Source: Candidatus Lokiarchaeum ossiferum (GTDB lineage: Archaea > Asgardarchaeota > Lokiarchaeia > Sigyniarchaeales > Promethearchaeaceae). Taken from it: a stretch of 32,000 nucleotides of DNA. Both the position numbers and the translations under genes were made by a program. The notes below the pieces were generated by a model, which was not told the origin of the DNA, did no database searches, and saw only the letters and a list, made by a program, of their open reading frames with translations. The DNA is taken from positions 4,680,001-4,712,000 of the forward strand of contig CP104013.1 in the NCBI GenBank assembly GCA_025839675.1, in the 5' to 3' direction. Every line of letters starts with the position of its first letter. Within the stretch, counting starts at the first letter, position 1. Below, piece after piece: positions 2,760 through 31,847 of this stretch.

Positions 2760-2788
2760 ATAAAATTATTCAATGCGATTTCTTTTAG

Positions 2789-2795
2789 TTATATT
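2789..2795 (+). promoter_or_regulatory. TATA-like element upstream of srp54
   Basis: TTATATT is centred about 25 nt upstream of the ATG at 2817. This fits an archaeal TATA box with a very short or absent leader. Sequence pattern only, in AT-rich DNA. Confidence 0.25.
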
Positions 2796-2816
2796 GTAAT
2801 CAATTTGTGAAGAAAT

Positions 2817-4256
2817 ATGGTGCTTGAAGGATTAGGGAAATCACTGGATGGGCTTATTAGGAAGGTTAGAAGACTCCCCGAGATTAACAAAGATGTTATT
2901 AACGCTTTAATTAAGGAATTGCAGCGTAGCTTGTTAATGGCTGATGTCAATGTTGAGATATGTTTACAAGTGACAGAAATAATTAAGAAACGGGCTATGG
3001 ATCAAAAAATAAATGAAAAAATTAACCGGAAAGACTATATAATTAAAATTCTCCATGATGAATTAATAAATCTATTAGGTGGGAAAGATGCACCGAAAAG
3101 AATTAAAACGGGTAAGGAAACAATCATTCTTTTAGTTGGTATTCAAGGGTCTGGGAAAACCACGACCGTTGGCAAGCTCGCTAATTTCTATAAGAAAAAA
3201 GGATTCAAGGTTGGAGCAGTATGTACCGATACGGATCGACCTGGAGCATATGAACAGATGGCTCAAACGATGGATTCTATTGGTGTAGCTCACTTTGGGA
3301 ATCCAAAAGAAAAAAGTGCCCTCAAGTTAGCTAAAAAAGGATTAAAACAATTTACCAAATCAGGAAAAGACAAAAAAGATCTTATTATCGTTGATACCGC
3401 TGGGCGTCATAAAGAAGAATCGGGTTTAATGAAAGAAATGCAAAAACTCGAAAATGTAATTAAGCCCAATGAAACCATACTCGTGATCGATGGAACTTTG
3501 GGGCAACAAGCCTATTCCCAAGCTAAAGCTTTTTCTGAAACGACCCATGTGGGAAGCATTATTATTACAAAACTCGATGGTTCTGCAAAAGGGGGTGGTG
3601 CTCTTTCCGCGGCAGCTGCTGCCAAAGCACCCATTAAGTTTATTGGGGTGGGAGAAAGAGTTGACGATTTGGACGAATTCAGCCCCACTTCTTTTGTTGG
3701 AACATTAATGGGCATTCCTGATTTAGAAGGACTCTTGAAAAAGATTGAAGAGTTGGGAATTGAACCCGATGATGATCAGATTTCCCGGATGAAAAAAGGG
3801 AAATTTACCCTAAATGACATGTATGATCAAATGAAATCTCTCCGCAAGATGGGAGGTTTTGGAAAAGTACTTGCTATGATGGGGGGTGCCAATATTCCGA
3901 AGGAAGTCAAAGAAATGGCGGAAGGGAACATGGATCGTATCGAAGTAATGATGAAATCTATGACTCCCCATGAGCGGGATAATCCAGAAGTGATTCGAAA
4001 AACTCGAATTACCCGAATTTCTCGAGGAAGTGGTACAACCTATACCGAAGTTAAGGGTTTATTGAAGCAATGGTCACAAATGAATTCTATGATGAAAGGA
4101 ATGCTCGGTAGAAAACGACGTGGTAAACGGGGTCAGCAAGTGCCAGGGATGGATGGTGGAATGCCTGGAATGGATGGAGGAGGCATGCCTGATCTGGCTC
4201 AAATGCAACAAATGATGGGTAATCAGAAGAAAAAACGTAAGAAATACCTTTGGTAA
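2817..4256 (+). CDS. srp54: Signal recognition particle protein SRP54 (GTPase)
   Basis: 479 aa. SRP GTPase motifs are [10 protein letters not shown] (G1), DTAGR (G3) and TKLDG (G4), plus GGGALS. The C-terminal M domain is Met-rich ([23 protein letters not shown]) and ends in a GMDGG/basic tail. Confidence 0.95.
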
Positions 4257-4288
4257 TTTTTTTTTGCACAATTTTCAATCAATTTCAA

Positions 4289-4615
4289 ATGGTTACTAAA
4301 ATGCCTACACCTTTTACAATGCGAGTTATCGAAATCATCCAAAACATCCCTGTAGGAAAAGTTTCAACATATGGATCCATAGCGCGGTTAGCAGGAAGTC
4401 CTCGTGGAGCGCGCCAAGTTTCATGGGCCCTTCATTCTATGACCGAAAAATATGCTTTACCATGGCATCGCGTGATTAATTCTCAAGGGAAGCTTGTACT
4501 CAAATCTGATGCTTCTTGCGAAACCCAAAAAGCCCTTCTTGAGAAGGAGGGTGTTGAAGTAGGTCGAAATTTTAAAGTAGATCTTAAAAAATATCTCTGG
4601 GATGGAAATTCATAA
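4289..4615 (+). CDS. atl: Alkyltransferase-like protein (ATL; MGMT DNA-binding fold without the acceptor cysteine)
   Basis: VSTYGSIARLAGSPRGARQV...LPWHRVINSQGKL...ALLEKEGVEV...DLKKYLW resembles E. coli YbaZ/Atl as I recall it. The PCHR active-site motif reads PWHR (Cys to Trp). The track ORF starts at 4250 and overlaps the srp54 stop, giving an implausibly hydrophobic N-terminus. ATG at 4289 or 4301 is more plausible. Confidence 0.8.
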   Translation: MVTKMPTPFTMRVIEIIQNIPVGKVSTYGSIARLAGSPRGARQVSWALHSMTEKYALPWHRVINSQGKLVLKSDASCETQKALLEKEGVEVGRNFKVDLKKYLWDGNS

Positions 4616-4633
4616 GAAATTCAAAAGAATATT

Positions 4634-6145
4634 ATGAATGAATTCCTTTTTTTCCATATGAAGCTTTTATACAATGCCCAGATTTTTACCGCAAATAAAT
4701 TAATGCATGGACATTTAGTAATTAAAGAAGGAAAAATTGACTTTATCGGAAAAGGACATCCTTCTTCTGAAATGCTTTCTTCAATTGGAGACCCTAATTC
4801 TCGGATAGATTGTGAAAATGCCCTTTTACTTCCGGGATTTATTGATGCTCATGTTCACTTTCGGGATTCCAAGCAAGCTTATAAGGAAACTCTCACAACT
4901 GGTTCTAAAGGTGCTATTGCAGGGGGAGTCACTACCGTACTTTCAATGCCGAATACTGATCCACCTCTTTCTACCTTTGATGCTCTTTCAGAATATAAAA
5001 CCATGGCGGCTTCAAAATCATTATTTTGTAACATTGGGCTGTATACTACTGTTAAGGAAGGTTTTTCTTTCGAAGAATTGAAGCAAATATCTTCTCTTGG
5101 TGTTTTTGGGATCAAAATATATCCTGGAGATCAATCCCAAGATGTACCCCTTGAATGGACTCCTGGATGGGTTAACGATGCTGATCCTGAATTTTTTGCG
5201 GAATCTGTTCCTAAAACTCTTAAGCATTTCATGAATACTTATCCAAATTGGACACAATTAATGCTCACAGCCAAGCAGATGAATCTCCCATTGATTTTCC
5301 ATCCCGAATACCCTCGAGATCCTAAAATTTTGCAACGTATGTGGGACACCGGTGTAGCAATTGCCTCTGCTGAAAAAGCCCCAAATCCCAATTTATTTGC
5401 TCATGATGTTCATCATCCAATTTATACAAATGAGTTAGCCTGTGTCGAAATGATCGCCACATTATTACGAAAATATTTTCCGAATCCTAAAGATGCTCCT
5501 CATGTTCATTTTGTTCATGTGTCCCATCCCGATCCAGTTCAAGTGGTTAAAAGAGTGCTATTGGATCATGGATATTCTGCATCGGTAGAGGTTTCTCCCC
5601 ATCATGCCCTATTGCATAAGTCAATGTCGTTTCCCGATGAAAATTTCGCGAAAGTCTTAGTTCCTTTACGAGCGCAAAAATTCCAAAAGGCGATGTATGC
5701 TTTGATCCAAAAAGGCGACATACATTCGATTGGCACAGATCATGCTCCTCATACTTTGGAAGAAAAACAACAACCTTTTGAAGTGGCTCCTTCAGGCTTT
5801 CCGTATATTGATTTCGCCAGTCGCATTCTTTTGACCGAAGTATTTGCAGAACGTTTAACTTTAAAGACAGTAATAAACTATTATGCAACCCAACCAGCAA
5901 AACTCTTTGGAATTGCAAATAAGGGTGAGATTTCAGTTGGGTTTGATGCTGATTTAGTTTTGATGAAAGAAGTGGATGCTTATCCGATAAAAGGTACTGA
6001 AATGTTGAGTAAACAGAAATGGACTCCTTGGGAAAATCACCCAATAACCGCTCAAGTACAAAAGGTGTTTCTGGAAGGAAACCTTGCCTATGATAACATC
6101 CATGGGTTATCTTCTCCCTTTGGAAAAATTCTTATAAAAAACTGA
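4634..6145 (+). CDS. Dihydroorotase-like cyclic amidohydrolase (PyrC/allantoinase/hydantoinase superfamily)
   Basis: 503 aa. Metal-ligand motifs occur in the canonical order: LPGFIDAHVHFRD, GIKIYPG (candidate carboxylated Lys), LIFHPE, HFVHVSH, GTDHAPH. An alternative start is the Met at 4658. Confidence 0.75.
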   Translation: MNEFLFFHMKLLYNAQIFTANKLMHGHLVIKEGKIDFIGKGHPSSEMLSSIGDPNSRIDCENALLLPGFIDAHVHFRDSKQAYKETLTTGSKGAIAGGVTTVLSMPNTDPPLSTFDALSEYKTMAASKSLFCNIGLYTTVKEGFSFEELKQISSLGVFGIKIYPGDQSQDVPLEWTPGWVNDADPEFFAESVPKTLKHFMNTYPNWTQLMLTAKQMNLPLIFHPEYPRDPKILQRMWDTGVAIASAEKAPNPNLFAHDVHHPIYTNELACVEMIATLLRKYFPNPKDAPHVHFVHVSHPDPVQVVKRVLLDHGYSASVEVSPHHALLHKSMSFPDENFAKVLVPLRAQKFQKAMYALIQKGDIHSIGTDHAPHTLEEKQQPFEVAPSGFPYIDFASRILLTEVFAERLTLKTVINYYATQPAKLFGIANKGEISVGFDADLVLMKEVDAYPIKGTEMLSKQKWTPWENHPITAQVQKVFLEGNLAYDNIHGLSSPFGKILIKN

Positions 6146-6152
6146 TCACTAC

Positions 6153-6161
6153 TTTTTTTTT
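6153..6161 (+). terminator. Oligo-T run downstream of the amidohydrolase gene (archaeal-type terminator candidate)
   Basis: Nine consecutive T residues begin 8 nt after the TGA at 6143-6145. A 105-nt gap follows before the next gene. Confidence 0.35.
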
Positions 6162-6250
6162 GCAAAAATTTTTTACTATAGCTAAAAAAGCTATAACTAA
6201 ATCAATTTATTCTTAGGTTTATTTGTCCTTCACTTGATAGGGGAACTACA

Positions 6251-6886
6251 ATGACTCAACAATGGACATTAGAAGATGGCGAAAAATTAATCCGCTATGC
6301 TCGGGCAAATATCGAAAACTACCTAACTTTAGGTCTTCGCTTAGATATTCCGGATGATCTTATCAATCGTTTTGGGATTAAAGGGGGAGCTTTTGTAACC
6401 CTTAATAAATATTCTATTCTTCCGGGTAATCCTTTACGGGGTTGTATCGGAATTATTTTACCTCATTATGCATTGATTGAGACTGTTCAAAATGTTTCTA
6501 TTTCTGCAGCAACTGAAGATCCGCGCTTTCCTAAAGTAAAGTATGAAGAAATGGATAAAATTCTTGTAGAAATCTCTATTCTCTCCATTCCCGAAAAAAT
6601 AACAGTGACTGATCCCTTAGATTATGAAAAAGAAGTGGTTATTGGACGGGATGGATTGATCATTTCCAAAGGACATCATCGGGGATTATTACTCCCCCAA
6701 GTCCCGGTTGAACATGATCGAAACTGGACTCCTATCCAATTTTTAGAACAAACCTGTCAAAAAGCATGGTTGGCTCCAGATGCTTGGAAGGATATAAAAA
6801 ATACAACTGTTGAACGCTTTACTGCCACTATTTTTGAAGAAACGGAACCTCGGGGGTTAGTTCGCCGAAAAGAAATAGGTGAATAG
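6251..6886 (+). CDS. AMMECR1 domain protein
   Basis: 211 aa. Family signatures are LRGCIGII and RGLLLPQVP, with a length typical of archaeal AMMECR1 homologues. Confidence 0.9.
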   Translation: MTQQWTLEDGEKLIRYARANIENYLTLGLRLDIPDDLINRFGIKGGAFVTLNKYSILPGNPLRGCIGIILPHYALIETVQNVSISAATEDPRFPKVKYEEMDKILVEISILSIPEKITVTDPLDYEKEVVIGRDGLIISKGHHRGLLLPQVPVEHDRNWTPIQFLEQTCQKAWLAPDAWKDIKNTTVERFTATIFEETEPRGLVRRKEIGE

Positions 6887-6949
6887 AATTAATTGATTAT
6901 TTTTTAAATACGACAGATTCTTTTTTTAAGAAAATTTTATTCACCTACG

Positions 6950-8728
6950 ATGATTAGCACTGAACCCTTACCTTCGAAAGACCAATCCTATGATATCATT
7001 TTAATCTCGGGAGAATTTTGGGCAGATCATCCCCATTCTGGGGTGGGAGTTATTGCCCGGGTTTTGGAAGCAGAAGGGTTCTCGGTTGGAATTATTGAAA
7101 AACCCAATTGGAAATCTTCCGAGGATTTTCTTAAGCTCGGTTTTCCCCGCCTTTTTTATGGGATTACTTCGGGTTCTATTGATAGCATGCTACAAAATTA
7201 CACTCCCTTAAAAAAACCACGCGCTTCAGATCCCTATAGTCCTTTCAACTCGGAGATTCCTGACCGAGCAGTTATTGTGTATTCTCATAAAGTTAAAGAA
7301 ATTCAGAAACACTTTCTCAATTCTAAACAAAGTGAAAAATCAGGAGATATGTCTACTTCAAAGAGAAAATTCATCCCCATTGTTCTTGGGGGGGTAGAAG
7401 CGTCCCTTCGGAGGTTTACCCATTATGATTATTGGGATAATAAACTACGTAGATCAATTCTATTGGATTCTAGAGCAGATATTTTGGTCTATGGTCCTGG
7501 AGAATTGCAAATCATTGAAATTGCTCATCGTTTAGACGACCATCAATCATTGATGGGAATTCCTGGAACATCCATTATTTCATCCGAATTCTTAGAAGAT
7601 CTTCAAGGATCTTCGTTCATGGGAAAAAAATTCACTCTTCTTCCCTCCCATGAAGAAGTTCTTCAATCCAAAGAAGCATTTTGTTTAATGCAACTTCAAT
7701 TTTCCAATCAAGCGAATCTCATTCAACCCGCTGGAAATCGTTTTATTGTGAAGTATCGAATGCCTGATTATACTACTGCAGATCTGGACCGAATCTATGA
7801 TCTTCCCTTTACCTATGTCATCCCTAAAAAATTCAAAGAATTTGAAATGGCGCGGTTTTCCATCATTACTCACCGGGGATGTTTTGGGAATTGTCATTTC
7901 TGTGCTATTGCCCTCCACCAAGGAACTAAAATTGTTTCTCGTTCCGAAGCCAATATTTTACGTGAAATTGACACCATGGCCCAATTACCTGAGTTCAAAT
8001 CGTATATTTCTGATTTGGGTGGCCCTTCCGCCAATATGTATGGGATGGATTGTATTCACAGGTATAATTGTTCTAAAAACTGTTTGGAATGTTCCCTCTT
8101 AGATCGTTCTCATCATCAAAATATCTCCTTGCTCCAAAAAGCCCGCCAAATTGCTGGCATTAAGAAAATTTTTGTGCGAAGCGGTATTCGCTATGATTTA
8201 GCTTTAGATTCCCTTCCATACCTTAAAGAGATCTCCAAATATCATATCTCAGGTTCCTTGAAAATTGCTCCTGAACATTTTTCTCCCAAGGTCTTAACTC
8301 TGATGAATAAGGATAATTCCCGGTTTGATGAGTTCAAGCAAAAATTTGATCAAATTAATCAACCTCTCAAACAAACCCTTAAATATTATTTCCTTACAGC
8401 TCATCCTGGAAGTACTATGCAAGACGCGCTCATCCTTCGACGTCAGATCAAGCATTTACATTATGAAAATTGTGAGAGTATTCAAATCTTTACCCCAACC
8501 CCGATGTCAATTTCTTCTTGCATGTATTATACCGGACTTAATCCTTTCACCATGGAACCCGTTTATGTTCCCTATGGATATAATGAGAAAAAGAAACAAA
8601 AAAATGTCCTTTACCCTCAGAATTTTCAACAACATAAGAAATCTCCCACATCTTCACGAAAAAAATCATCCAAAAGTTTCTACTCGAAATATTCTAAACA
8701 TCCAAAAAGGAAGAAAAACAAACCCTAA
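6950..8728 (+). CDS. ygiQ: YgiQ/UPF0313-family radical SAM protein
   Basis: 592 aa. The N-terminal region DIILISGEFWADHPHSGVGVIARVLEAEGFSVGIIEKPNW matches the YgiQ N-domain pattern. The CX3CX2C cluster motif is HRGCFGNCHFCAI. The C-terminal tail is Lys/Ser-rich. Confidence 0.85.
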   Translation: MISTEPLPSKDQSYDIILISGEFWADHPHSGVGVIARVLEAEGFSVGIIEKPNWKSSEDFLKLGFPRLFYGITSGSIDSMLQNYTPLKKPRASDPYSPFNSEIPDRAVIVYSHKVKEIQKHFLNSKQSEKSGDMSTSKRKFIPIVLGGVEASLRRFTHYDYWDNKLRRSILLDSRADILVYGPGELQIIEIAHRLDDHQSLMGIPGTSIISSEFLEDLQGSSFMGKKFTLLPSHEEVLQSKEAFCLMQLQFSNQANLIQPAGNRFIVKYRMPDYTTADLDRIYDLPFTYVIPKKFKEFEMARFSIITHRGCFGNCHFCAIALHQGTKIVSRSEANILREIDTMAQLPEFKSYISDLGGPSANMYGMDCIHRYNCSKNCLECSLLDRSHHQNISLLQKARQIAGIKKIFVRSGIRYDLALDSLPYLKEISKYHISGSLKIAPEHFSPKVLTLMNKDNSRFDEFKQKFDQINQPLKQTLKYYFLTAHPGSTMQDALILRRQIKHLHYENCESIQIFTPTPMSISSCMYYTGLNPFTMEPVYVPYGYNEKKKQKNVLYPQNFQQHKKSPTSSRKKSSKSFYSKYSKHPKRKKNKP

Positions 8729-8739
8729 ATAACCTTACG

Positions 8740-9618
8740 GTGATCCCCATGGTTCCACAAAATCATCCCTTTTCGATTCCAAAACCACTTTTATTACAAA
8801 AACTCCGCAATTATCTGAATATTGACATCGGATTTGGAGATCTTTCCAGTGGGTTAATTCCCGCAGATTCACTTCGCTCGGCTCGAATTTTTGCAAAATC
8901 TTCTGGAATTGTGGCAGGCGCAGAAGAAGCACGCCTCTTGTTTGAAGATCTTGGAGTGCAAGTCGTTCAGGAGAAATATGATGGGGAATCTATTTCTAAG
9001 GGAGAAAATGTCTTCCAAATTGAAGGTAATTTGCGGAACATTTTGATGATCGAACGAACGGCTTTGGATTTTTTGATGATCCTTTCATCCATAGCGACCA
9101 GCACTCATGATTTGGTTTCCAAGGTAAGAGCTGCTCAGTTCCCTACTATTATTGCGACTACTCGAAAAGTGACTCCCGGCTTTGGGTGGTTTGAAAAAAA
9201 AGCAGTCTTTTTCGGCGGAGGCGATACACATCGCTGGAATCTCAGTGATATGGTCATGTTTAAAGATACCCATTTAGCGTTTTATGGGGGCGATGTATCC
9301 CGTTTATTATTGGATGCCAAGAAAACGATTAGTTTTTCCAAAAAAATCGAAATTGAACTGGAGAATTCGGAAGATATTATTCCTGCTATCGAAAGCGGGG
9401 CTGATATTATTATGCTTGACAATATGTCTCCTGATGAGATTAAAAAGGCTCTTTCATCTCTAAAAATTGCCCGCAAAGGGGTTCTTTTTGAAGCATCTGG
9501 CAATATCACCCCTGCTTCAATACTCGAGTATGCCCAAAGCGGAGTTGATATTATTAGTACCTCTTCAACGGTTTTGCAACCTCATAAACACTTGGATTAT
9601 TCTTTACGCTTGCTATAG
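8740..9618 (+). CDS. nadC: Nicotinate-nucleotide pyrophosphorylase (carboxylating) / quinolinate phosphoribosyltransferase
   Basis: 292 aa. Motifs seen are ERTALDFL, TRKVTPG, HRWNLSDMVMFKDTH, IMLDNM and EASGNIT. The track start at 8740 is GTG; an ATG lies at 8749. Confidence 0.9.
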   Translation: MIPMVPQNHPFSIPKPLLLQKLRNYLNIDIGFGDLSSGLIPADSLRSARIFAKSSGIVAGAEEARLLFEDLGVQVVQEKYDGESISKGENVFQIEGNLRNILMIERTALDFLMILSSIATSTHDLVSKVRAAQFPTIIATTRKVTPGFGWFEKKAVFFGGGDTHRWNLSDMVMFKDTHLAFYGGDVSRLLLDAKKTISFSKKIEIELENSEDIIPAIESGADIIMLDNMSPDEIKKALSSLKIARKGVLFEASGNITPASILEYAQSGVDIISTSSTVLQPHKHLDYSLRLL

Positions 9619-10180: not shown

Positions 10181-10552
10181 TTAAAGTAATTTTAATTTAC
10201 TGGTAATTCTATCTACTTGTTCGGCTTTGGCGGGTCCAATTGCAACTGCGGTTTTAGATCCTGGTTCTAACTGTGTTAGTCCTGCATCTTGAATCAAACT
10301 GCATGGAAGCCCCGCATCTTTCGCTTCTTGATAAATTTGGAGAAGATCCGTTTCGCTGGTTACTTTGAGTGCAATTTTTTTTTGCCCCTCTTTCCCCCAA
10401 GCTTGATGGATGGCGGGTGTATATTTTCGAGCATATTCCACCGCAATAACCGATGCGTGGGCACCTTGGGCAACTTTCTTTCCTGTAGACATTTTCAAAT
10501 CTGTTCGTAAAATAAGTGCTTGTTTGTATTGATGATTTACTTTGATTTTCAT
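10181..10552 (-). CDS. pth2: Peptidyl-tRNA hydrolase, archaeal/eukaryotic type (Pth2)
   Basis: 123 aa. LILRTDLKMSTGKKVAQGAHAS..., KIALKV, DAGLTQLEPGSKTAVAIGP are typical Pth2 patterns. Confidence 0.9.
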   Translation of the reverse strand: MKIKVNHQYKQALILRTDLKMSTGKKVAQGAHASVIAVEYARKYTPAIHQAWGKEGQKKIALKVTSETDLLQIYQEAKDAGLPCSLIQDAGLTQLEPGSKTAVAIGPAKAEQVDRITSKLKLL

Positions 10553-11414: not shown

Positions 11415-12560
11415 TTAATCATTCAACATTTTCTTAATATCTGCAACATTATCTTTTGATGTATTCGTTTCTATTTCAGGTTCATCTTCAATTGTTGGTT
11501 GTTTTTGGGGTTTTTGAACTTCCTTCTTCTTTCCTGGGAAGGGTGGAAGATCTAATTTAGTGGCACTCGGTTTTGCCGATTCTGGAGATTTATCTGATTT
11601 AAGTGTTTGAGCTGTGAATTGAAGTTGGTTCACTTTTTCCGTGAGTTTAATCAAAGATGGGACCAAGGTTGCTAAAGCATTATTCATACTTTCTAATCGA
11701 TGTTCAAATTTCCCAACCGTTTTATCAATATTCATCAAGCGAGTTCGGGATTCAATATTCAAGTTTTCAACTTTTTGCTCCATGCTATTGAGTCGCTCAA
11801 CGGTATTTTTTGCTAAATTCGTTATTTTCTCATCCGCATTAAACTTAGATAATCTATCTTCAATTTTACCTAATCGATTGTCCAGACGATTCATATCCAA
11901 CGTATCTAATTTTGATTTAATCCTGGAAACATCTTCCGTAGTGGCTAAATTAGAGATTTTCATGTCTATTTGGGATTGATAATGTTCCATCTTATCCGAT
12001 AACTTGTTTACTGCTTCATTTGGTGAATTTTCTTTTAATTCTTTGCTTAAATCTTTGATTTGATCTGTAAAATGAACTTCGCCGAATAAAGCATTCAACT
12101 TATATTCCACTTTTTCAAATCTTCCTTGGAGATCAAAACCGTCTAATTTTTGCTCTAGATTGTCTATTCGTTCTAAAACAGGTTTATTATCTAAAGATTG
12201 GGCTTCGATTTGGGGTGACTGATAACTACTTTGAGAATAGGTGGGTATTGGTGCTTGCGGCTGTGTATTTGGTTCCATGGCAGTTACCATTGGAGTTCGT
12301 TGCGGGTATTGGGCTGAACTGGTGCGTTGCGTGGTGCTTTGTATTGGATTTTGAGCGATAGTTGGTGTTTGAGGTGTTGCTCCATAGTTTTGAAAGGATG
12401 CCGTTCTTGGAACTGTGGTAGGAGAAACTCGTTTTTTAGGTGTCAATTCTTTCTTTTGACTCACGGGTTTTCCACATTTTGTACAAAATTTCTGGGAATC
12501 CTTCAATTCTGCACCGCAACCCCAGCAAAATTTTGGGGGACGTTTTTGGGCCATTTTCAT
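11415..12560 (-). CDS. Zinc-ribbon protein with Q/P/T-rich disordered linker and long coiled-coil region
   Basis: 381 aa. The N-terminus CWGCGAELKDSQKFCTKCGKP is a C-x2-C...C-x2-C ribbon. About 100 aa of low-complexity P/Q/T/S follow. Then about 200 aa carry recurring RL(D/N/E)x(L/M)ExK(L/V)-type heptad-like motifs. The tail is acidic/basic. No TM segment. Confidence 0.6.
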   Translation of the reverse strand: MKMAQKRPPKFCWGCGAELKDSQKFCTKCGKPVSQKKELTPKKRVSPTTVPRTASFQNYGATPQTPTIAQNPIQSTTQRTSSAQYPQRTPMVTAMEPNTQPQAPIPTYSQSSYQSPQIEAQSLDNKPVLERIDNLEQKLDGFDLQGRFEKVEYKLNALFGEVHFTDQIKDLSKELKENSPNEAVNKLSDKMEHYQSQIDMKISNLATTEDVSRIKSKLDTLDMNRLDNRLGKIEDRLSKFNADEKITNLAKNTVERLNSMEQKVENLNIESRTRLMNIDKTVGKFEHRLESMNNALATLVPSLIKLTEKVNQLQFTAQTLKSDKSPESAKPSATKLDLPPFPGKKKEVQKPQKQPTIEDEPEIETNTSKDNVADIKKMLND

Positions 12561-12959: not shown

Positions 12960-13508
12960 TTATTTAGAATAGGGCTTCTTCCAAATGTGGATGTCCATGA
13001 GCTGATTATTTAAATCGTCGAAACAAATGTCCACATTCTTCGCTTCTTTCGCCGAAGTTTCATAATAGGATGCGCGCAATTCTTGTGCCAATGCTTCCCC
13101 TTCCGTTTTCGACACCACCCGCTCTTCGATCAAATCAACCTTATTTCCCAGTAATATTCGAGGGACTCCAGGCGCATATTGTTCTGATTCTTCCACCCAG
13201 TTCTTCACGTGTTCGTATGACTCTCTGCGGGTTAAATCAAACACAAAAATACATGCGAACGCTCCTCGGTAAAAGGATGGTCTTACAAATTGAAAGTGTT
13301 TTTGACCCGCCAAATCCCAAATCTGGAGTCGAATTGCCAAATTTTCTTCAGGTTTATTGATCATCTTAATTGCAAAATTGGCCCCGATGCTCATAATGTA
13401 ATTTTCATTGAATTTTCTTTCCGTAAACTGGAGAACAAGAGATGTTTTACCAACCGCACCATCACCAAGTACAACTACTTTGAAGATATATTCTTTCGGG
13501 CCAGACAT
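12960..13508 (-). CDS. Rab/Ras-superfamily small GTPase (Rab-like)
   Basis: 182 aa. G1 is GDGAVGKT, switch I is SIGANF, G3 is RLQIWDLAGQ, G4 is GNKVD, G5 is ETSAK. Rab-like segments are FYRGA and FVFDLT. There is no C-terminal Cys prenylation motif (ends HIWKKPYSK). Confidence 0.9.
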   Translation of the reverse strand: MSGPKEYIFKVVVLGDGAVGKTSLVLQFTERKFNENYIMSIGANFAIKMINKPEENLAIRLQIWDLAGQKHFQFVRPSFYRGAFACIFVFDLTRRESYEHVKNWVEESEQYAPGVPRILLGNKVDLIEERVVSKTEGEALAQELRASYYETSAKEAKNVDICFDDLNNQLMDIHIWKKPYSK

Positions 13509-24370: not shown

Positions 24371-24372
24371 TT

Positions 24373-24440
24373 ATCTAAGATATGTATATATTAATAGGGT
24401 ACACAAGATATCTAAAGATATATATATTAATGGGTATACA
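24373..24440. promoter_or_regulatory. Imperfect direct duplication (about 31 bp x2) of a TATA-rich element in a divergent promoter region
   Basis: ATCTAAGATATGTATATATTAATAGGGTACACA (24373-24404) and ATCTAAAGATATATATATTAATGGGTATACA (24410-24440) lie between the UPF0182 gene (minus) and the small ORF (plus). Confidence 0.4.
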
Positions 24441-24447
24441 ATAAAAA

Positions 24448-24744
24448 GTGAGTAATATGTTTAAGAAACGAGGCCAGAAGAAAGGAACGAAGGAAAATGA
24501 TTTATACAGTGTTCTTGCTGCTCTAGGTGTTATGGAGGACGAATTTTGCGGAGCTGCTCCAATGGATGAAATTCATTTCTGTCTTCGAGTTGATTTCAAA
24601 CGCAAAATGAAAGATACTCAAATGATTACTTTTCTCGAAAAAGGAATCGAACTTGGCTATTCTCTTCGAGCTGATAAGGGATGGAAACTAACTCCTCAAG
24701 GCGCTCAAATTGTAGATGAATATTTATCATCTTTAGCAAATTAA
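24448..24744 (+). CDS. Small hypothetical protein, possible winged-helix DNA-binding fold
   Basis: 98-aa ORF from GTG 24448; ATG at 24457 is more likely. The pattern is helix-helix-helix then GYSLRADKGWKLTPQGAQIV, resembling a wHTH wing. Fold is guessed from the pattern only. Confidence 0.4.
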   Translation: MSNMFKKRGQKKGTKENDLYSVLAALGVMEDEFCGAAPMDEIHFCLRVDFKRKMKDTQMITFLEKGIELGYSLRADKGWKLTPQGAQIVDEYLSSLAN

Positions 24745-24822: not shown

Positions 24823-27800
24823 ATGCTGAAAACACGGGAAGAAGTAAATCAACTAATTATTGATGCTGACAAATTGATTCAACAAGAAAAAATTTCAGAA
24901 GGACTTGCATTATTCGATAAAGCAAAAAAGCTTGCGATTGCATTAGATTGGGCTGAAAGAGAATCGCAAATATCTCAAATGATTTCTGATGTGCATTTTA
25001 ATGTAAAAAAAAGACGATTTCTTGAAGAAAAACAAAAAAAAATCGAAGAAAATCTCAAGAAACAGCAAGATGATGAAAATAAATTAGTCGCTGCTCAAAA
25101 AAGGGTATTTGATAAACAACAACAAAATAAACAATTGAAATTAGATCAGTTAAAACAGAAGAAGGAATTTGAATCCCAACAATCCGAAAAAGCTTATAAT
25201 CAATTAGAAATTGGCTCTAAATTTGTTTCTCAAAACCAGTTTGGGGAAGGATTGAATGCTTTTCAAGAAGCGCTAAGAATATTTACTGAAATACATTGGT
25301 CCGCAGAAATTATGCGTACTAAAGAATTAATTTCAGACACGAAAAATAGAAAAAATGAATATGATGTGAAACTTCTCAAGGAAAAACGAAATGTTGAGAC
25401 TCTCCAAAAATCTATTCAACAGGAAAATAAAATTATTGATTCAGAACGAGAAAAAAAAATTTTGGAAGATCAAAAGAAGAACTCAATAAATGAAGAAAAA
25501 ACAAAGAAACAATCTTTTGAAAATCAACTTTCAGATGAAATGTATGATGAAATTTCAAAATGGGAAAAAATTGGTGATGAATACCTTAAGCAAGTTAAAT
25601 CTGGAAATATACTTTCTACTGAGTGCCCATATCCACAAATTATTGAAATTTACTCCCAAAATTACAAAAAAGCAAAGAATCTTGGCTGGACAAATCAAGC
25701 AAATCGATTTTTTGAGGGTATCTCTTTATATAAGGAAAAAATGGTAAGAGATCAAAAACTCAGAGTTATTGAAGAAAGAAAAATATCTAAATCCAAAGCA
25801 GATCAAGATTATATCAATAAAAAAATTAAAACTTCTAAGTTATTGCAACAGGAAAGACAACAAAAAATAGCTTCTAAACGTCAAGAAGAAGAATTGAAAG
25901 CTCAACAAGAGCAAGCTATCGCGGATGAAGTATTGAAATCCATTGATACGATTGAGTCTACAATTAAGCTATATGAAAATCGTGCTGATCGCATTCCCTA
26001 TGAGTGTCCATATGCCCAAGCCATTGAAATTTATAAGGCGGGTGCGAACCGTTTAAAGGAACTCGGTTGGACGGAGCAATCTCAACGTCTTTATGATGGA
26101 ATGAATACATATCGCGAAAAATTAACCAAAGATCAACAATATAGAGAATCCGAAGCCAATCGTATTGCAAAAACCAAAGAAGAAGCGGAAATGTTAGAAA
26201 AACGGGCGACTCTTTCCAAACAATTACAGGAAGAAAAACAACAAAAACTCTTGTCCCAACGTCAAAAAGAAGAATTGAAAGCCCAACAAGAACAAGCAAT
26301 CGCGGATGAAGTGTTTAAATCCATTGATGCGATTGAGTCTACAATTAAGCTATATGAAAATCGTGCTGATCGCATTCCCTATGAGTGTCCATATGCCCAA
26401 GCCGTTGAAATTTATAAGGCGGGTGCGAACCGTTTGAAGGAACTCGGTTGGACGGAGCAATCTCAGCGTCTTTATGATGGAATGAATACTTACCGGGAAA
26501 AATTGACCAAGGATCAACAATATAGAGAGTCCGAAGCCAATCGTATTGCAAAAACCAAAGAAGAAGCAGAAATGTTAGAAAAACGAGCGGCTCTTTCCAA
26601 AAAATTACAAGAAGAAAAACAACAAAAACTCCTGTCCCAACGTCAAGAAGAAGAATTGAAAGCTCAACAAGAGCAAGCTATCGCGGATGAAGTGTTTAAA
26701 TCCATTGATGCGATTGAGTCTACAATTAAGCTATATGAAAATCGTGCTGATCGCATTCCCTATGAGTGTCCATATGCCCAAGCCATTGAAATATATAAGG
26801 CGGGTGCGAACCGTTTAAAGGAACTCGGTTGGACGGAGCAATCTCAACGTCTTTATGATGGAATGAATACATATCGCGAAAAATTAACCAAAGATCAACA
26901 ATATAGAGAATCCGAAGCCAATCGTATTGCAAAAACCAAAGAAGAAGCGGAAATGTTAGAAAAACGGGCGGCTCTTTCCAAACAATTACAGGAAGAAAAA
27001 CAACAAAAACTCTTGTCCCAACGTCAAGAAGAGGAATTGAAAGCTCAACAAGAGCAAGCTATCGCGGATGAAGTGTTTAAATCCATTGATACGATTGAGT
27101 CTACAATTAAGCTATATGAAAATCGTGCTGATCGCATTCCCTATGAGTGTCCATATGCCCAAGCCATTGAAATTTATAAGGCGGGTGCGAACCGTTTGAA
27201 GGAACTCGGTTGGAAGGAGCAATCTCAGCGTCTTTATGATGGAATGAATACTTACCGGGAAAAATTGACCAAGGATCAACAATATAGAGAGTCCGAAGCC
27301 AATCGTATTGCAAAAACCAAAGAAGAAGCGGAAATGTTAGAAAAACGGGCGGCTCTTTCCAAACAATTACAGGAAGAAAAACAACAAAAACTCCTGTCCC
27401 AACGTCAAAAAGAAGAATTGAAAGCCCAACAAGAACAAGCTATTGCGGATGAAGTGTTTAAATCCATTGATGCGATTGAGTCTACAATTAAGCTATATGA
27501 AAATCGTGCTGATCGCATTCCCTATGAGTGTCCATATGCCCAAGCCATTGAAATTTATAAGGCGGGTGCGAACCGTTTAAAGGAACTCGGTTGGACGGAG
27601 CAATCTCAGCGTCTTTATGATGGAATGAATACATATCGCGAAAAATTAACCAAAGATCAACAATATAGAGAATCCGAGGCCAATCGTATTGCAAAAACCA
27701 AAGAAGAAGCGGAAATGTTAGAAAAACGGGCGGCTCTTTCCAAACAATTGCAGGAAGAAAAACAACAAAAACTCCTGTCCCAACGTCAAGAAGAGGAATT

Positions 27801-30800
27801 GAAAGCTCAACAAGAGCAAGCTATCGCGGATGAAGTGTTTAAATTCATTGATACGATTGAGTCTACAATTAAGCTATATGAAAATCATGCTGATCGCATT
27901 CCCTATGAGTGTCCATATGCTCAAGCCATTGAAATTTATAAGGCGGGTGCGAACCGCTTGAAGGAAATCGGTTGGACGGAGCAATCTCTGCGTCTTTATG
28001 ATGGAATGAATACATATCGCGAAAAATTAACCAAAGATCAACAATATAGAGAATCCGAAGCCAATCGTATTGCAAAAACCAAAGAAGAAGCGGAAATGTT
28101 AGAAAAACGGGCGGCTCTTTCCAAACAATTACAGGAAGAAAAACAACAAAAACTCCTGTCCCAACGTCAAAAAGAAGAATTGAAAGCCCAACAAGAACAA
28201 GCTATTGCGGATGAAGTGTTTAATTCCATTGATACGATTGAGTCTACAATTAAACTATATGAAAATCATGCTGATCGCATTTCCTATGAATGCCCATATA
28301 CGCAAGCCATTGAAATTTATAAGGTGGGTGCGAACCGCTTGAAGGAACTCGGTTGGACGGAGCAATCTCAACGTCTTTATGATGGAATGAATACTTACCG
28401 CGAAAAGTTAACCAAAGATCAACAATATAGAGAGTCTGAAGCAATGAAAGTGCTAAAGACCCAAAAAGATACCGAATTGCTGGAAAAACGCTCCCTTTTA
28501 TCCCATCAACTAGAATTAGAAAAAAAGCAGCAAAAATTGCGTCATGAACAAGAATTAAGAGAAAAAGCCAGAAGAGAGAAATTACTAGGTGAAAGTGTTT
28601 TTAATGAAATCGATAAAATTGAAGCTGTTATAAAAAAATATGAATCCTTAGAGGATATTATCCCATATGAATGTCCATACTCTGAAGCCATAAATGTTTA
28701 TAAAAAGAGCGCAAATCGGTTGAAAGATTTGGGTTGGCTTGAACAATCTTTACGATTGTATGATGGAATGAATACTTATCGAGAGAAACTTGCAAAAGAT
28801 AAGCAATTTCGTTTAAATGATGCAAAAAGAATCGTAAAGACGAAGAAAGATGCCGAGATGTTAGAAAAAAGAGCAGCTATCTCCAAAAAATTACAACAGG
28901 AAAAAGAACAACGTATAATTAAGGAAAGAGAAGCAGAAAAGGCAAAACTTGATAATCAAACTACTATTGCAAATGAAATTTTTAGACAAATTGATGAAAT
29001 TGAAGAAATTGTCAAGAATTATGAAAACAATGTTGATATCTTTTCGATTGAATGTCCCTACTCTATTGCAATAGAAAAGTATCAATATGGTTCAAGGAAA
29101 TTGCAAGAGATTGGGTGGATTGAAGAATCAACTAGGTTGTTAGATGGGGTTGAGCTATATCGTGAAAAATTGATTAAAGACAATACTTTTCGCCAACTCG
29201 AGAAAAAACGAATTGAGAAAATTCAAGAAGATGCTGCTTTAATTGAACAACGTGTAAATTTATCTAAAAAATTGAAAGAAGAACGAGAAAAGATAGAAGA
29301 AGAGCAAAGATTCCGAGAATTGGAGAGTAAAAAACAAAAAGAGTCTTTAGCTCAAAAAGTTTTTTTGGAAATTGATGAAATCGAAAATCAAGTAAAACAA
29401 TATGAAAATCAACCGGATAGAATCCCATATGATTGTCCTTATCAAAAAGCTATAAATATATATCAAGAAAATGCGTCAAAATTGCGTGATATTGGTTGGG
29501 GCGAGGAAGCTGCTCGATTATTTGATGGTGTGAATACTTATCAACAAAAATTAGCTGCAGATAAAAGTTATAGAAAGTTGGAAATGCTGAGAGTTGCAAA
29601 GACCAAAGAAGAATCTGAAATGCTCGAACGAAGAGCTAAGCTGGCCAAAGAAATTGCTGAAGCAACTAAAGCTAAACAAAAAGCTGCAGAACTTCAAATA
29701 GAAAAGGAAAACCAATATAAAAAAGAACAAAGTGATATTGCTTTTGAATTAATGGATAGGGGAAATTTGCTTGCTAATGAACATAATCTTTTTGATCAAG
29801 CAATAGAAAAATTCAAGGAAGCTCAAGAAATTTTTCGTAATATTCATTGGTTTGCAGAAGAAGAGAAAGTTTTGATGCAAATATCTCATTTTCGGGAACG
29901 AAAGCTTCAAAAACAATTAGAAGAGCAGAAAAATAAAGAAGCTTACTTTAAACAACAAAAAGAAATCGAAGAAATAGAGCAACTTGCGAAATTGAGCCAA
30001 GAAATCCAAAATAAAAAATTAAAAGAAGAAGAAACTAGAAAGAGAATTGATGCTGAAGATAAACGAAAACAAGCTGAAATTGAATTTCAAAAACGAATCG
30101 AATTATCCCAAAAGCTAGAAGCAAAAAAATTACAAGAGCGACAGAAAGCTTTACAAGAAGAAATTAATAAAGAAATGCATAATAAGCAAATTCATGACGA
30201 ATGCCTGGAACTTCTAGAAAAAGCACGCGTTTTCGTGACTGATCAGAAAATTGAAGCAGCATTAAAAATTTATAATACAGTGATTGAAAAATATGCTTCA
30301 ATTGACTATTTTGACGGGATTAGACTAACAAAAGATACTATTCTTAAGGTAGAACAAGATTTTGAAGAATTTAAGAAGCAAGAAATGTTAAAACTCAAGT
30401 CTATTCAGGAAAGAAAGGAAGAAGAAGCGAGATTGGAAAAATTGATTTTAGCTGCTAAAGAAGAGTCGGAACGACAAAAGCTTGAAGAACAAAAAAGATT
30501 TTTGCAAGAAGAAGTAGAAAGGGAGGAAAGAGAGCAAATTCAAGATGAAATTATTACTTTAATTGCAGATGCTGGAAATCTTGCACAAAGTAATAATTTT
30601 GAAAAATCACTTGAAATCTATCAAAAAGCTTTAAAATTATTTGATAAAATTTCTTGGCCGTTAAAACATCAACAAGTAAAAAGCATCATTAATGAAGTTA
30701 AATCAAAGAAAAAAACTTATGAAGAAAATCTTCGCCTTAAAAAAATCCAGAATGAAAAGTTGGAGGCTGAAAGGAAAGAATTTGAAGAGATGATGGCTCA

Positions 30801-31647
30801 ACAAGAAAGAAAAAGAAAATCACAAGAAGAACTCGCTGAGCAGCAATCTATGGAAAGACAGATTGAGATCGCTCGTCAAAAAGAAATGGGTGATAATGCA
30901 TATCGCATGTTAGAATTAGCTGAGAATTCAAGCGAGTCTCGTAAAAAATATCTTGGTTTACATTATTTTCACTATGCTCTATTTAATTTCAAGACTATTG
31001 GATGGGATCGTGAAGCAAAAACTACCAAAAAAAGGTTTATTGGTATATATAATTCTATTCAATCTCCATTAATTGATGTTAATGAACTTTTGATGAACGA
31101 AAAACTTGAAAAGGAGTTTCACATAATGAATTCTTTAACGCAAGTTATTAAATGGAAGAATAGAAACGATTTTTCCGCTGCCCAAACCGAAATTAAGACG
31201 ATCATTCATCTGGTTCAAGAATTTGGGTGGGTTAAATCCTTAAAGTTACTCCAATCATTTCAAGACCAATTGAAAATTGAAGAAAAATTGTATCTGAAAG
31301 AATTGGAATCTGAACAATCTAAACCAAGTGAAGAAAAAGCAAATAAATTAATAAAACAAGCTACATATCAAATAAAACAATTATCCTATGATAAAGGAAT
31401 TAATTTGGCTGAAGAAGCTCACGAAATGCTTGTCCAGATTGGAAGGGCGAGAGAAGCGAGAACTGTGGAGCAAGAATTGTTGAGGTGGAAATTGAAAGCG
31501 GAAAAAGCGTTACAAAAGAAAAATTCATCCGATAGATCGGAATCTCCAAAAATATCTCAATATTTAACTGATGAAGAACGAAGAAGAGCAATTATTGATG
31601 AAAGAAAGCGTAGGAGAAGAGAAGCTCGCAAAAAATTTCAGAAATAA
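24823..31647 (+). CDS. 2274-aa soluble repeat protein: helical-hairpin mini-domains separated by long E/K/Q/R-rich helices; family unknown
   Basis: One uninterrupted 6.8-kb ORF with no hydrophobic TM segment or signal peptide. It has 11 modules with an (E/D)CPY...GW signature plus about 8 related hairpins with a conserved aromatic (e.g. EALRIFTEIHW, EAQEIFRNIHW, ALKLFDKISW, ALFNFKTIGW). The C-terminal tail is basic (RKRRRREARKKFQK). Confidence 0.85.
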   Translation: MLKTREEVNQLIIDADKLIQQEKISEGLALFDKAKKLAIALDWAERESQISQMISDVHFNVKKRRFLEEKQKKIEENLKKQQDDENKLVAAQKRVFDKQQQNKQLKLDQLKQKKEFESQQSEKAYNQLEIGSKFVSQNQFGEGLNAFQEALRIFTEIHWSAEIMRTKELISDTKNRKNEYDVKLLKEKRNVETLQKSIQQENKIIDSEREKKILEDQKKNSINEEKTKKQSFENQLSDEMYDEISKWEKIGDEYLKQVKSGNILSTECPYPQIIEIYSQNYKKAKNLGWTNQANRFFEGISLYKEKMVRDQKLRVIEERKISKSKADQDYINKKIKTSKLLQQERQQKIASKRQEEELKAQQEQAIADEVLKSIDTIESTIKLYENRADRIPYECPYAQAIEIYKAGANRLKELGWTEQSQRLYDGMNTYREKLTKDQQYRESEANRIAKTKEEAEMLEKRATLSKQLQEEKQQKLLSQRQKEELKAQQEQAIADEVFKSIDAIESTIKLYENRADRIPYECPYAQAVEIYKAGANRLKELGWTEQSQRLYDGMNTYREKLTKDQQYRESEANRIAKTKEEAEMLEKRAALSKKLQEEKQQKLLSQRQEEELKAQQEQAIADEVFKSIDAIESTIKLYENRADRIPYECPYAQAIEIYKAGANRLKELGWTEQSQRLYDGMNTYREKLTKDQQYRESEANRIAKTKEEAEMLEKRAALSKQLQEEKQQKLLSQRQEEELKAQQEQAIADEVFKSIDTIESTIKLYENRADRIPYECPYAQAIEIYKAGANRLKELGWKEQSQRLYDGMNTYREKLTKDQQYRESEANRIAKTKEEAEMLEKRAALSKQLQEEKQQKLLSQRQKEELKAQQEQAIADEVFKSIDAIESTIKLYENRADRIPYECPYAQAIEIYKAGANRLKELGWTEQSQRLYDGMNTYREKLTKDQQYRESEANRIAKTKEEAEMLEKRAALSKQLQEEKQQKLLSQRQEEELKAQQEQAIADEVFKFIDTIESTIKLYENHADRIPYECPYAQAIEIYKAGANRLKEIGWTEQSLRLYDGMNTYREKLTKDQQYRESEANRIAKTKEEAEMLEKRAALSKQLQEEKQQKLLSQRQKEELKAQQEQAIADEVFNSIDTIESTIKLYENHADRISYECPYTQAIEIYKVGANRLKELGWTEQSQRLYDGMNTYREKLTKDQQYRESEAMKVLKTQKDTELLEKRSLLSHQLELEKKQQKLRHEQELREKARREKLLGESVFNEIDKIEAVIKKYESLEDIIPYECPYSEAINVYKKSANRLKDLGWLEQSLRLYDGMNTYREKLAKDKQFRLNDAKRIVKTKKDAEMLEKRAAISKKLQQEKEQRIIKEREAEKAKLDNQTTIANEIFRQIDEIEEIVKNYENNVDIFSIECPYSIAIEKYQYGSRKLQEIGWIEESTRLLDGVELYREKLIKDNTFRQLEKKRIEKIQEDAALIEQRVNLSKKLKEEREKIEEEQRFRELESKKQKESLAQKVFLEIDEIENQVKQYENQPDRIPYDCPYQKAINIYQENASKLRDIGWGEEAARLFDGVNTYQQKLAADKSYRKLEMLRVAKTKEESEMLERRAKLAKEIAEATKAKQKAAELQIEKENQYKKEQSDIAFELMDRGNLLANEHNLFDQAIEKFKEAQEIFRNIHWFAEEEKVLMQISHFRERKLQKQLEEQKNKEAYFKQQKEIEEIEQLAKLSQEIQNKKLKEEETRKRIDAEDKRKQAEIEFQKRIELSQKLEAKKLQERQKALQEEINKEMHNKQIHDECLELLEKARVFVTDQKIEAALKIYNTVIEKYASIDYFDGIRLTKDTILKVEQDFEEFKKQEMLKLKSIQERKEEEARLEKLILAAKEESERQKLEEQKRFLQEEVEREEREQIQDEIITLIADAGNLAQSNNFEKSLEIYQKALKLFDKISWPLKHQQVKSIINEVKSKKKTYEENLRLKKIQNEKLEAERKEFEEMMAQQERKRKSQEELAEQQSMERQIEIARQKEMGDNAYRMLELAENSSESRKKYLGLHYFHYALFNFKTIGWDREAKTTKKRFIGIYNSIQSPLIDVNELLMNEKLEKEFHIMNSLTQVIKWKNRNDFSAAQTEIKTIIHLVQEFGWVKSLKLLQSFQDQLKIEEKLYLKELESEQSKPSEEKANKLIKQATYQIKQLSYDKGINLAEEAHEMLVQIGRAREARTVEQELLRWKLKAEKALQKKNSSDRSESPKISQYLTDEERRRAIIDERKRRRREARKKFQK
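25498..29688 (+). repeat. Array of 11 tandem 127-codon coding modules (1 diverged, 7 near-identical, 3 diverged)
   Basis: Module starts in register are about 25498, 25879, 26260, 26641, 27022, 27403, 27784, 28165, 28540 (6-nt deletion), 28927 (6-nt insertion) and 29308. Each carries ...Y(E/D)CPY..AI..Y......L...GW.E...R...G...Y..KL. Confidence 0.85.
25879..28443 (+). repeat. Near-identical 381-bp tandem repeat core (about 6.7 copies), in frame
   Basis: The string cgtcaaRaagaRgaattgaaagc recurs at exactly 381-nt spacing (25879 to 28165). Copies 1 and 3 differ at about five positions that I could find by eye. Identity is lost after about 28443. Confidence 0.95.
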
Positions 31648-31667: not shown

Positions 31668-31847
31668 TTAGTTTTCCCCTTTATTTTTCCTATTTTCAAT
31701 CAATTTTTTGAGTTGAATTTCATTACGTATTAAATCTCTAACTGCAGTACGAATAGCTTCGCTTCTGTTGGGGAACAATTTTTCATTTACTAATAAATCA
31801 AGCGTTTCAATATAAGCTTCAGGTATGTAAACAGTTAACATTTTCAT
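31668..31847 (-). CDS. Ribbon-helix-helix (CopG/Arc/MetJ-type) protein
   Basis: Not in the ORF track (59 aa). My translation is MKMLTVYIPEAYIETLDLLVNEKLFPNRSEAIRTAVRDLIRNEIQLKKLIENRKNKGEN. This is a classic RHH pattern: beta strand, then LD.LV, then (P/N)RSEAIR.A(V/I)RDL. It is convergent with the 2274-aa gene, with stops 20 nt apart. Confidence 0.8.
   Translation of the reverse strand: MKMLTVYIPEAYIETLDLLVNEKLFPNRSEAIRTAVRDLIRNEIQLKKLIENRKNKGEN

Follow-up and report, generated by a model that had tools for sequence, protein, structure and literature searches.

In the genome of Candidatus Lokiarchaeum ossiferum strain B35, one gene encodes a giant protein of 2274 amino acids (aa), much of which consists of a 127-aa unit repeated in tandem. 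The gene is on the forward strand at positions 24823-31647 of the stretch of DNA analysed here (32,000 nucleotides (nt) of contig CP104013.1, from position 4,680,001 to position 4,712,000, referred to below as the window); all positions are in the numbering of the window unless another locus is named. The product matches, at 100% identity, a protein annotated as hypothetical in this strain (NEF87_004034; UYP47749.1), and UniRef names it "tetratricopeptide repeat protein". The interior units of the array are nearly identical in DNA sequence, gene conversion has taken place between them since this strain separated from strain B36, and the array is predicted with high confidence to form a segmented α-helical rod of three-helix bundles. 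The explanation of the whole which we favour, and consider reasonably probable, is that the interior of the array is homogenised by recombination and encodes a segmented rod of modules resembling those of the MIT and tetratricopeptide repeat (TPR) families, which would act in the cytoplasm as a scaffold of adjustable length bearing docking modules.

At the level of the DNA, Tandem Repeats Finder reported a 381-bp period at 25877-28442 (6.7 copies, 95% matches, 0% indels), and a looser row of its output reached 28778. The units were cut in the 381 register and compared pairwise without gaps. The six units starting at 25879, 26260, 26641, 27022, 27403 and 27784 have mutual identities of 94.0-98.7%, whereas the unit starting at 28165 is only about 83% identical overall, being near-identical up to unit position ~278 and diverged beyond it. 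A first-pass annotation, made from the sequence alone, had described seven near-identical repeats; for six of these the description is accurate, and for the seventh it is accurate only up to that position. The homogenised block (25879-28442, forward strand) therefore consists of six full copies and the first ~278 nt, i.e., ~0.7, of a seventh. Copies 1 and 3, which had been thought to differ at about five nucleotides, differ at 5 of 381.

The block is the central part of a longer array. Diverged copies lie in exact 381 register at 25498, 28546, 28927 and 29308 (49, 63, 55 and 57% nt identity to the homogenised units, respectively), and with these the 381-bp period expected by the first-pass annotation extends over an array larger than had been noted: 11 units, from 25498 to 29688, corresponding to aa 226-1622. 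A hidden Markov model (HMM) of the unit found 11 near-full copies at positions identical to those of the 381-register units, the first of them at aa 226. Thus, the array comprises one diverged unit (unit 0; 25498-25878, forward strand), whose best match is an edge unit from another species; the homogenised block; and the diverged tail of unit 7 followed by the diverged units at 28546, 28927 and 29308 (28443-29688, forward strand). The exact 381-nt (127-codon) spacing and the preservation of the reading frame are as first described, since every unit start is in frame 0 of the open reading frame (ORF) at 24823-31647. The six antisense ORFs of 64-68 aa starting at 26345, 26726, 27107, 27488, 27869 and 28250 (26345-28444, reverse strand) are present as listed; with their 381-nt spacing they echo the repeat, of which they are a mechanical by-product, and are not genes.

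The genome of strain B35 was assembled as one contig of 6,035,313 bp from Nanopore and Illumina reads (PMC9834061). That of strain B36, which is closed, comes from a separate culture and a separate assembly (CP163304; preprint 10.64898/2026.02.13.705702). The giant genes of the two strains were compared base by base, the B36 locus being L007 in our numbering. Both genes are 6825 nt in length and encode 2274 aa, and they are separated by 70 differences and no indels. Forty-eight of the 70 differences are inside the homogenised block, a divergence of 1.87%, compared with 0.26-0.32% in the diverged units and the C-terminal region (0.32% at 28443-29688); per site, the strains differ 6-7 times more in the block than in either of these. 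Forty of the 48 differences in the block are variants which B35 already has at the equal position of another unit. They are grouped in conversion-like runs: in unit 4, six consecutive variants have switched (unit positions 231-270), and in unit 2, ten consecutive variants have switched (unit positions 7-177). A new variant, C>T at unit position 120, is carried by three adjacent units of B36. Because most of the block differences pre-exist in other units and the length of the gene is equal in the two strains, gene conversion between units has proceeded since the strains split, with copy number unchanged. The suggestion that homogenisation is still in progress is thereby borne out. The non-repeated N-terminal 675 nt (24823-25497, compared with 3001-3675 in L007) also differ between the strains, by 1.78%: they are as divergent as the repeat block and about sixfold more so than the C-terminal region, and seven of the differences are non-synonymous.

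The units are clearly under purifying selection and are constrained as coding sequence. There are 34 variable columns among the six B35 units, 22 of them synonymous and 12 non-synonymous, and the ratio of non-synonymous to synonymous differences per site (pN/pS) is 0.10 when pooled among units and 0.12 between B35 and B36; the gene is real and intact, as had been assumed. Synonymous divergence is 0.13 among units and 0.035 between strains, and therefore the expansion is older than the strain split. These observations also bear on the proposal, raised by the first-pass annotation as a way in which it might be wrong, that the repeats or their number are an artefact of assembly, by collapse or expansion. 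A 2.6-kb block of 94-99% identity is beyond the resolution of short reads, and the short-read metagenome-assembled genomes (MAGs) of relatives may be collapsed; however, B35 is a single contig that includes Nanopore reads, B36 yielded a 6825-nt gene without indels and with its own pattern of unit variants, and the frame is intact under purifying selection. Given that two independent long-read assemblies agree, an artefact is extremely unlikely.

The homogenised block differs from the rest of the gene in base composition as well. Its GC content is 0.40, compared with 0.31 in the remaining gene, and GC content at third codon positions (GC3) is 0.30-0.35 in the homogenised units compared with 0.18-0.23 in the diverged units and both gene ends; the homogenised units are in fact higher in GC at all codon positions. 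GC-biased gene conversion was considered as the cause and was not adopted: among the species compared, the rise in GC3 is confined to L. ossiferum, with none in the homogenised units of Promethearchaeum syntrophicum MK-D1, Ca. Harpocratesius repetitus or three other species.

Forty-eight relatives of the giant protein were found among 5.8 billion proteins, all of them in Asgard MAGs carrying the labels Loki-, Thor-, Hod-, Hermod- or Promethearchaeota. The unit HMM detected 5-18 units in 23 of these (P0001-P0023) and zero in the remaining 25 (P0024-P0048), which are paralogous Asgard giants of 1640-2930 aa with many Pfam TPR and MIT matches, and which have in common with the giant protein a canonical type of module described below. 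When 1.84 billion representative proteins were searched with a profile of the unit core, only 159 matches were obtained, apparently family members or fragments of them. To judge from these searches, the family is uncommon and confined to Asgard archaea. The locus was also sought in a single genome from each species, by way of the conserved gene of 107 aa that neighbours it, and 65 loci with the giant gene were found, having 4-15 units where the ORF was complete. Overall, orthologues have 4-18 units; Asgard MAGs assembled from short reads are probably collapsed or broken here, and unit counts from them are therefore lower bounds. The expectation that copy number might vary between strains or cells is thus realised between species but not between B35 and B36, the only other strain available, which have equal numbers. 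One of the contigs with the Asgard gene cluster and a seven-unit giant gene (L069; DATKTW010000079.1) is labelled Candidatus Nanopelagicaceae bacterium; it has probably been placed in the wrong bin.

The contrast between interior and edge units recurs in this family. In the closest orthologues (P0002, 18 units; P0003, 13 units; P0004, 9-10 units), the interior units are closer to each other than to those of other species, whereas the units at either end of the array have their best matches in other species. Within the L. ossiferum protein, interior units are 95-99% identical to each other, compared with at most 54% to any unit from another species. Pairs of units with at least 90% identity occur in 8 of 60 genes, and are interior without exception; the species with near-identical interior units include P. 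syntrophicum MK-D1 (13 units) and Ca. Harpocratesius repetitus (15 units). From its presence in these eight genes and in the closest orthologues, interior expansion with homogenisation is recurrent in the family. Long repeats of such similarity had been called unusual in prokaryotic coding sequence, which is true in general; within the family of the giant protein they arise in species after species. The length of the unit is strict: 381 nt in L. ossiferum, 127 aa almost throughout L001-L003, and 130 aa in MK-D1. The MK-D1 orthologue (L011, ORF 1907-9559) has its 13 units in an exact 130-aa period, six of them 82-98% identical to a neighbouring unit; a second closed genome thus has a homogenised block that arose independently. 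Recombination between units, whether as gene conversion or as unequal exchange, maintains the near-identity of the interior copies, while edge units have drifted apart; lineages would lengthen or shorten the rod by duplication or deletion of interior units.

What the array encodes was predicted with AlphaFold2. A two-unit model, calculated from an alignment of 63 double units from seven species, has a mean predicted local distance difference test score (pLDDT) of 93.1 and helices at residues 2-33, 45-61, 65-160, 172-188 and 192-253. A one-module model has a pLDDT of 94.4, a predicted template modelling (TM) score of 0.82 and helices at residues 2-24, 36-52 and 56-92. In each predicted unit, an 11-residue loop joins helix 1 to helix 2, which has 17 residues, and helix 3 follows. 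The loop bears a conserved (E/D)(C/S/P)PY motif; hydrophobic positions in the unit profile line all three helices of the bundle; and Y32, P44, Y45, Y52, W64, Y78 and K81 are near-invariant. Helix 3 (65-160) is predicted to be unbroken for 96 residues and to become helix 1 of the next bundle, so that modules are set apart in the model by a helix of ~55-60 residues. Because helix 3 runs unbroken into the next bundle, the array is predicted with high confidence to be a segmented α-helical rod of three-helix bundles. At 1.5 Å per residue, a 96-residue helix would be ~14 nm long, and each unit would advance the rod by an estimated ~12 nm.

The helix between bundles is where the main rival to a scaffold has its best evidence. 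In a profile of 68 units, hydrophobic residues are conserved past the bundle at positions 88, 91, 96, 105, 106, 112 and 116, and such a patch, together with long helices rich in E, K, Q and R and a unit length that is exact, would suit a structural element that associates with itself, as a dimeric coiled coil or a former of filaments, in which the bundles would be knuckles and the number of repeats would tune the geometry of the filament. However, in the same profile positions 117-127 and 1-13 are charged and have no conserved hydrophobic residue, and the power at a period of 3.5 residues is no greater than at 3.3 or 4.0; a clear heptad signal, of the kind that a canonical coiled coil would give, did not emerge. 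In addition, the bundles are homologous to MIT and TPR modules, which in known proteins bind peptides. Because of the conserved linker patch we keep the filament as the main rival, although a doubtful one. In having a long charged helix that spaces binding modules, the giant protein is like the ER/K single α-helix spacers and the golgin tethers; unlike these, its linker is ~45% charged, rich in Q and furnished with a conserved hydrophobic patch, and is neither a clean ER/K helix nor a clean heptad coiled coil.

Several independent comparisons, each giving a weak signal, point to a relationship with MIT domains. The top two sequence matches of the unit profile in the PDB are both MIT domains, albeit weak ones: that of Sulfolobus Vps4 (2w2u_A, E 0.11) and that of mouse MITD1 (1wfd_A, E 0.49). 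Among 67 single units, the weak Pfam family that recurred most was MIT (four units, best E 0.011). Two orthologues (P0014 and P0015) each have, ahead of the array, a canonical module that aligns to the whole Pfam MIT model and scores above its cut-off (31.8 and 30.2 bits, respectively, against 30). The unit core aligns with the canonical modules in hhalign at 94% probability (E 9e-8), the sole gap being an 11-residue insertion in the loop, and the canonical modules in turn match the MIT domain of VPS4A (E 7e-4, 50 residues), MITD1, and consensus TPR designs (19 residues). The best superposition of the one-module model on a natural structure is with the MIT domain of MITD1 (4a5x_A; root-mean-square deviation 2.3 Å, TM score 0.67), although at a Foldseek E of 1.9 it is not significant. 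We concluded that the unit is a derived three-helix module of MIT/TPR type, whose status as a functional MIT domain is putative.

The resemblance has limits for each of the families concerned. Like the MIT domains (PF04212) of Vps4, MITD1, katanin and spastin, which span about 70-80 residues, the module is a small up-down-up three-helix bundle and has the motif Y-x-x-A-I-x-x-Y-x-x-A; unlike those proteins, the Lokiarchaeum protein has ~19 modules threaded on continuous helices and no catalytic domain, in its 127-aa unit the first helix is longer and the 11-residue loop contains a conserved PY, and its own modules are below the Pfam cut-off. With TPRs the canonical modules have the sequence signature of a helix hairpin in common, but TPRs, in runs of at least three contiguous 34-residue repeats, stack back to back as a superhelix, whereas the modules of the giant protein, each of 1.5 repeats, are isolated by long helices; membership of the TPR family was not indicated, as there were only single weak matches to TPR_2 and TPR_12 (16.5 bits against 27-30). 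In architecture, the closest likeness is to the rods of spectrin, α-actinin and dystrophin, which are modular and have their length set by the number of repeats. There, as in the two-unit model, consecutive three-helix bundles are strung on one continuous helix, the last helix of one repeat continuing into the next. Unlike spectrin, the giant protein has a unit of 127 aa rather than ~106 aa, and short bundles with a long naked linker helix; no sequence similarity to spectrin was found, and a match to the spectrin family was absent from the Pfam scan. MIT modules in known proteins bind short helical motifs. The linker patch (MLxxRxxLxxxL) and the C-terminal helix were compared by eye with a motif of the MIM1 type, (D/E)xxLxxRLxxL(K/R), and both depart from it.

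Outside the array, the giant protein has further modules at both ends. Upstream of the array there are two canonical MIT/TPR-like three-helix modules, at ~aa 5-60 and 120-175 with a charged helix between them (24835-25347, forward strand), which align with those modules of orthologues that reach the Pfam MIT threshold. Downstream, the C-terminal region (29689-31554, forward strand) has approximately six more canonical modules with charged helices between them, weak TPR_2 and TPR_12 matches, and W and Y positions that are conserved in a full-length alignment. The protein ends in a conserved basic helix (31555-31644, forward strand; …EERRRAIIDERKRRRREARKKFQK), and an Arg/Lys-rich terminal motif (…RIAARREERRKKVL…) is within the last ~25 residues of every unit-bearing orthologue inspected. 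Thus, a single chain carries ~19 modules, without an ATPase or other catalytic domain. The rod would be flanked by about eight of the canonical modules, with the basic helix at its C-terminal end.

The translation has no signal peptide, no membrane segment and no hydrophobic stretch by Kyte-Doolittle analysis (maximum for a 19-aa window, 0.74), and E, K, Q, R and D make up 48% of its residues; the protein is therefore expected to be cytoplasmic. Near-identical long in-frame repeats are typical of bacterial surface proteins, many of which vary their repeat number for antigenic or phase variation, and in the surface rods of the SasG/Aap (128-aa G5-E repeats) and Rib/alpha C types such repeats are kept near-identical by intragenic recombination, with the number of repeats setting the length. 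The giant protein is like them in having long near-identical in-frame DNA repeats and an elongated product, and its copy number differs between species, so that a secreted or surface protein (e.g. an adhesin or a protein associated with the S-layer) whose repeat number serves antigenic or phase variation might be considered. But the bacterial rods are secreted, anchored to the wall, β-rich and variable in repeat number between strains, whereas the giant protein is archaeal, lacks a signal peptide or membrane segment, appears all-helical and half charged with modules of a cytoplasmic MIT/TPR-like type, and has the same repeat number in B35 and B36. A surface location is very unlikely.

Taken together, these features lead us to prefer a scaffold or spacer in the cytoplasm, its length set by the number of units, which would present MIT-type docking modules at regular intervals along the rod; this function is inferred. 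Candidate partners would be tails of the ESCRT-III type, a co-encoded winged-helix protein (see below) or the protein's own linker patch. Several points weigh against such a scaffold. No Pfam model scored above its cut-off on the giant protein or on single units; Foldseek found no significant match to the two-unit and one-module models in the PDB (E at least 0.27 and 0.83, respectively); and the three-helix bundle is a generic fold. The ~12 nm period comes from helix geometry and not from model coordinates. Since linker positions 96, 105, 106, 112 and 116 have no partner in the monomer model, the real assembly may be a dimer or a complex which that model misses. The protein may also be dispensable, because one related MAG contig (L008) keeps the neighbouring genes without the giant gene: at 3376-3871, the small gene otherwise upstream of the giant gene ends 8 nt from the ribbon-helix-helix (RHH) gene otherwise downstream of it. 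This gap is either a real loss or an assembly skip at 4.6x coverage. Finally, the family is not described in the literature or supplements searched.

Concerted evolution of in-frame tandem repeats is already known, as are the folds of the modules. Many isolated MIT/TPR-like bundles on continuous helices, with a fixed period and a restriction to Asgard archaea, have no described counterpart that we found in the literature searched. L. ossiferum and P. syntrophicum serve in culture as the models for how eukaryotic cell architecture descends from archaea, and both carry this conserved, unannotated giant protein, which combines a rod of spectrin-like construction with MIT/TPR-like modules (in eukaryotes, the MIT kind reads ESCRT-III tails). 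Because repeat number shifts between species and conversion is in progress in two strains, the gene can be seen as a natural experiment in the tuning of protein length; it is also a clear archaeal case of intragenic concerted evolution. Perhaps the protein is, more specifically, an Asgard-specific cytoskeletal or tethering rod of adjustable length, in which a polymer, or a partner present in many copies (e.g. ESCRT-III-type tails), would dock on MIT-like modules set at regular intervals, the basic helix would be an anchor, and the winged-helix protein would work together with it. In this full form the proposal is speculative and rather improbable; if true, the giant protein would be a prokaryotic counterpart of eukaryotic scaffolds of the spectrin or golgin type, with the number of units setting a physical distance in the cell.

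The giant gene is part of a conserved cluster of four genes, in the order small gene, giant gene, RHH gene, 107-aa gene. The small gene (24457-24744, forward strand) encodes 95 aa from the ATG at 24457, or starts from a GTG at 24448 in the list of ORFs, and its product is 38-48% identical to that of the gene in the same position in L001, L002 and L004-L006. A small gene of 95-133 aa is on the same strand directly 5′ of the giant gene in 49 of 51 assessable Asgard loci. Its product in L. ossiferum has no Pfam match and weakly resembles the winged helix at the C-terminus of eS19 (E 0.0045), from which we consider that it probably ends in a winged-helix domain. The RHH gene (31668-31847, reverse strand; Pfam RHH_1, 29.1 bits against a cut-off of 20.5) is convergent to the giant gene and is present at 60 of 65 Asgard loci. 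The 107-aa gene, which in L007 is at 10184-10507 and which in B35 would be just past the end of the window, follows the giant and RHH genes at nearly every locus. At 52-80% identity across Asgard lineages (L001-L006 and L008-L087), it is much more strongly conserved than the giant protein. The 107-aa protein has no match in Pfam or the PDB; a likeness to SRP14 was considered and gained no support from a PDB profile search or Pfam.

The window also contains genes for SRP54, AMMECR1, a small GTPase of the Ras family and a membrane protein resembling UPF0182, a neighbourhood in keeping with an Asgard archaeon. The Ras-family gene (12960-13508, reverse strand; Pfam Ras, E 4e-51) is 11 kb from the giant gene. 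In distant loci, a Ras-family GTPase gene (L004, 8099-8533; L005, 8021-8572; L006, 7998-8555) and a gene for a proteasome alpha subunit are immediately upstream of the pair formed by the small gene and the giant gene, and in the Lokiarchaeum clade there is a GTPase-like gene of 204 aa downstream. Such neighbours invite comparison with golgins, in that the rod might be a tether whose basic C-terminal helix holds it to a membrane or nucleic acid, and which captures along its length partners regulated by small GTPases. The conservation of the basic helix, the Ras-family genes just upstream of the pair in distant orthologues and the downstream GTPase-like gene agree with a tether of this kind; but the GTPase neighbours differ from clade to clade, and in L. 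ossiferum the Ras gene is at the distance given above, so that we consider it quite improbable.

Two other parts of the window deserve mention. A reverse-strand gene at 11415-12560 encodes a protein of 381 aa with an N-terminal zinc ribbon followed by coiled-coil-like sequence, and has weak matches to DUF7310 and other families. The UPF0182-like gene and the small gene are divergent, and the region separating them contains an AT-rich direct repeat of 36 nt (24372-24441; 1.9 copies, 85% match), which may be a duplicated promoter element.

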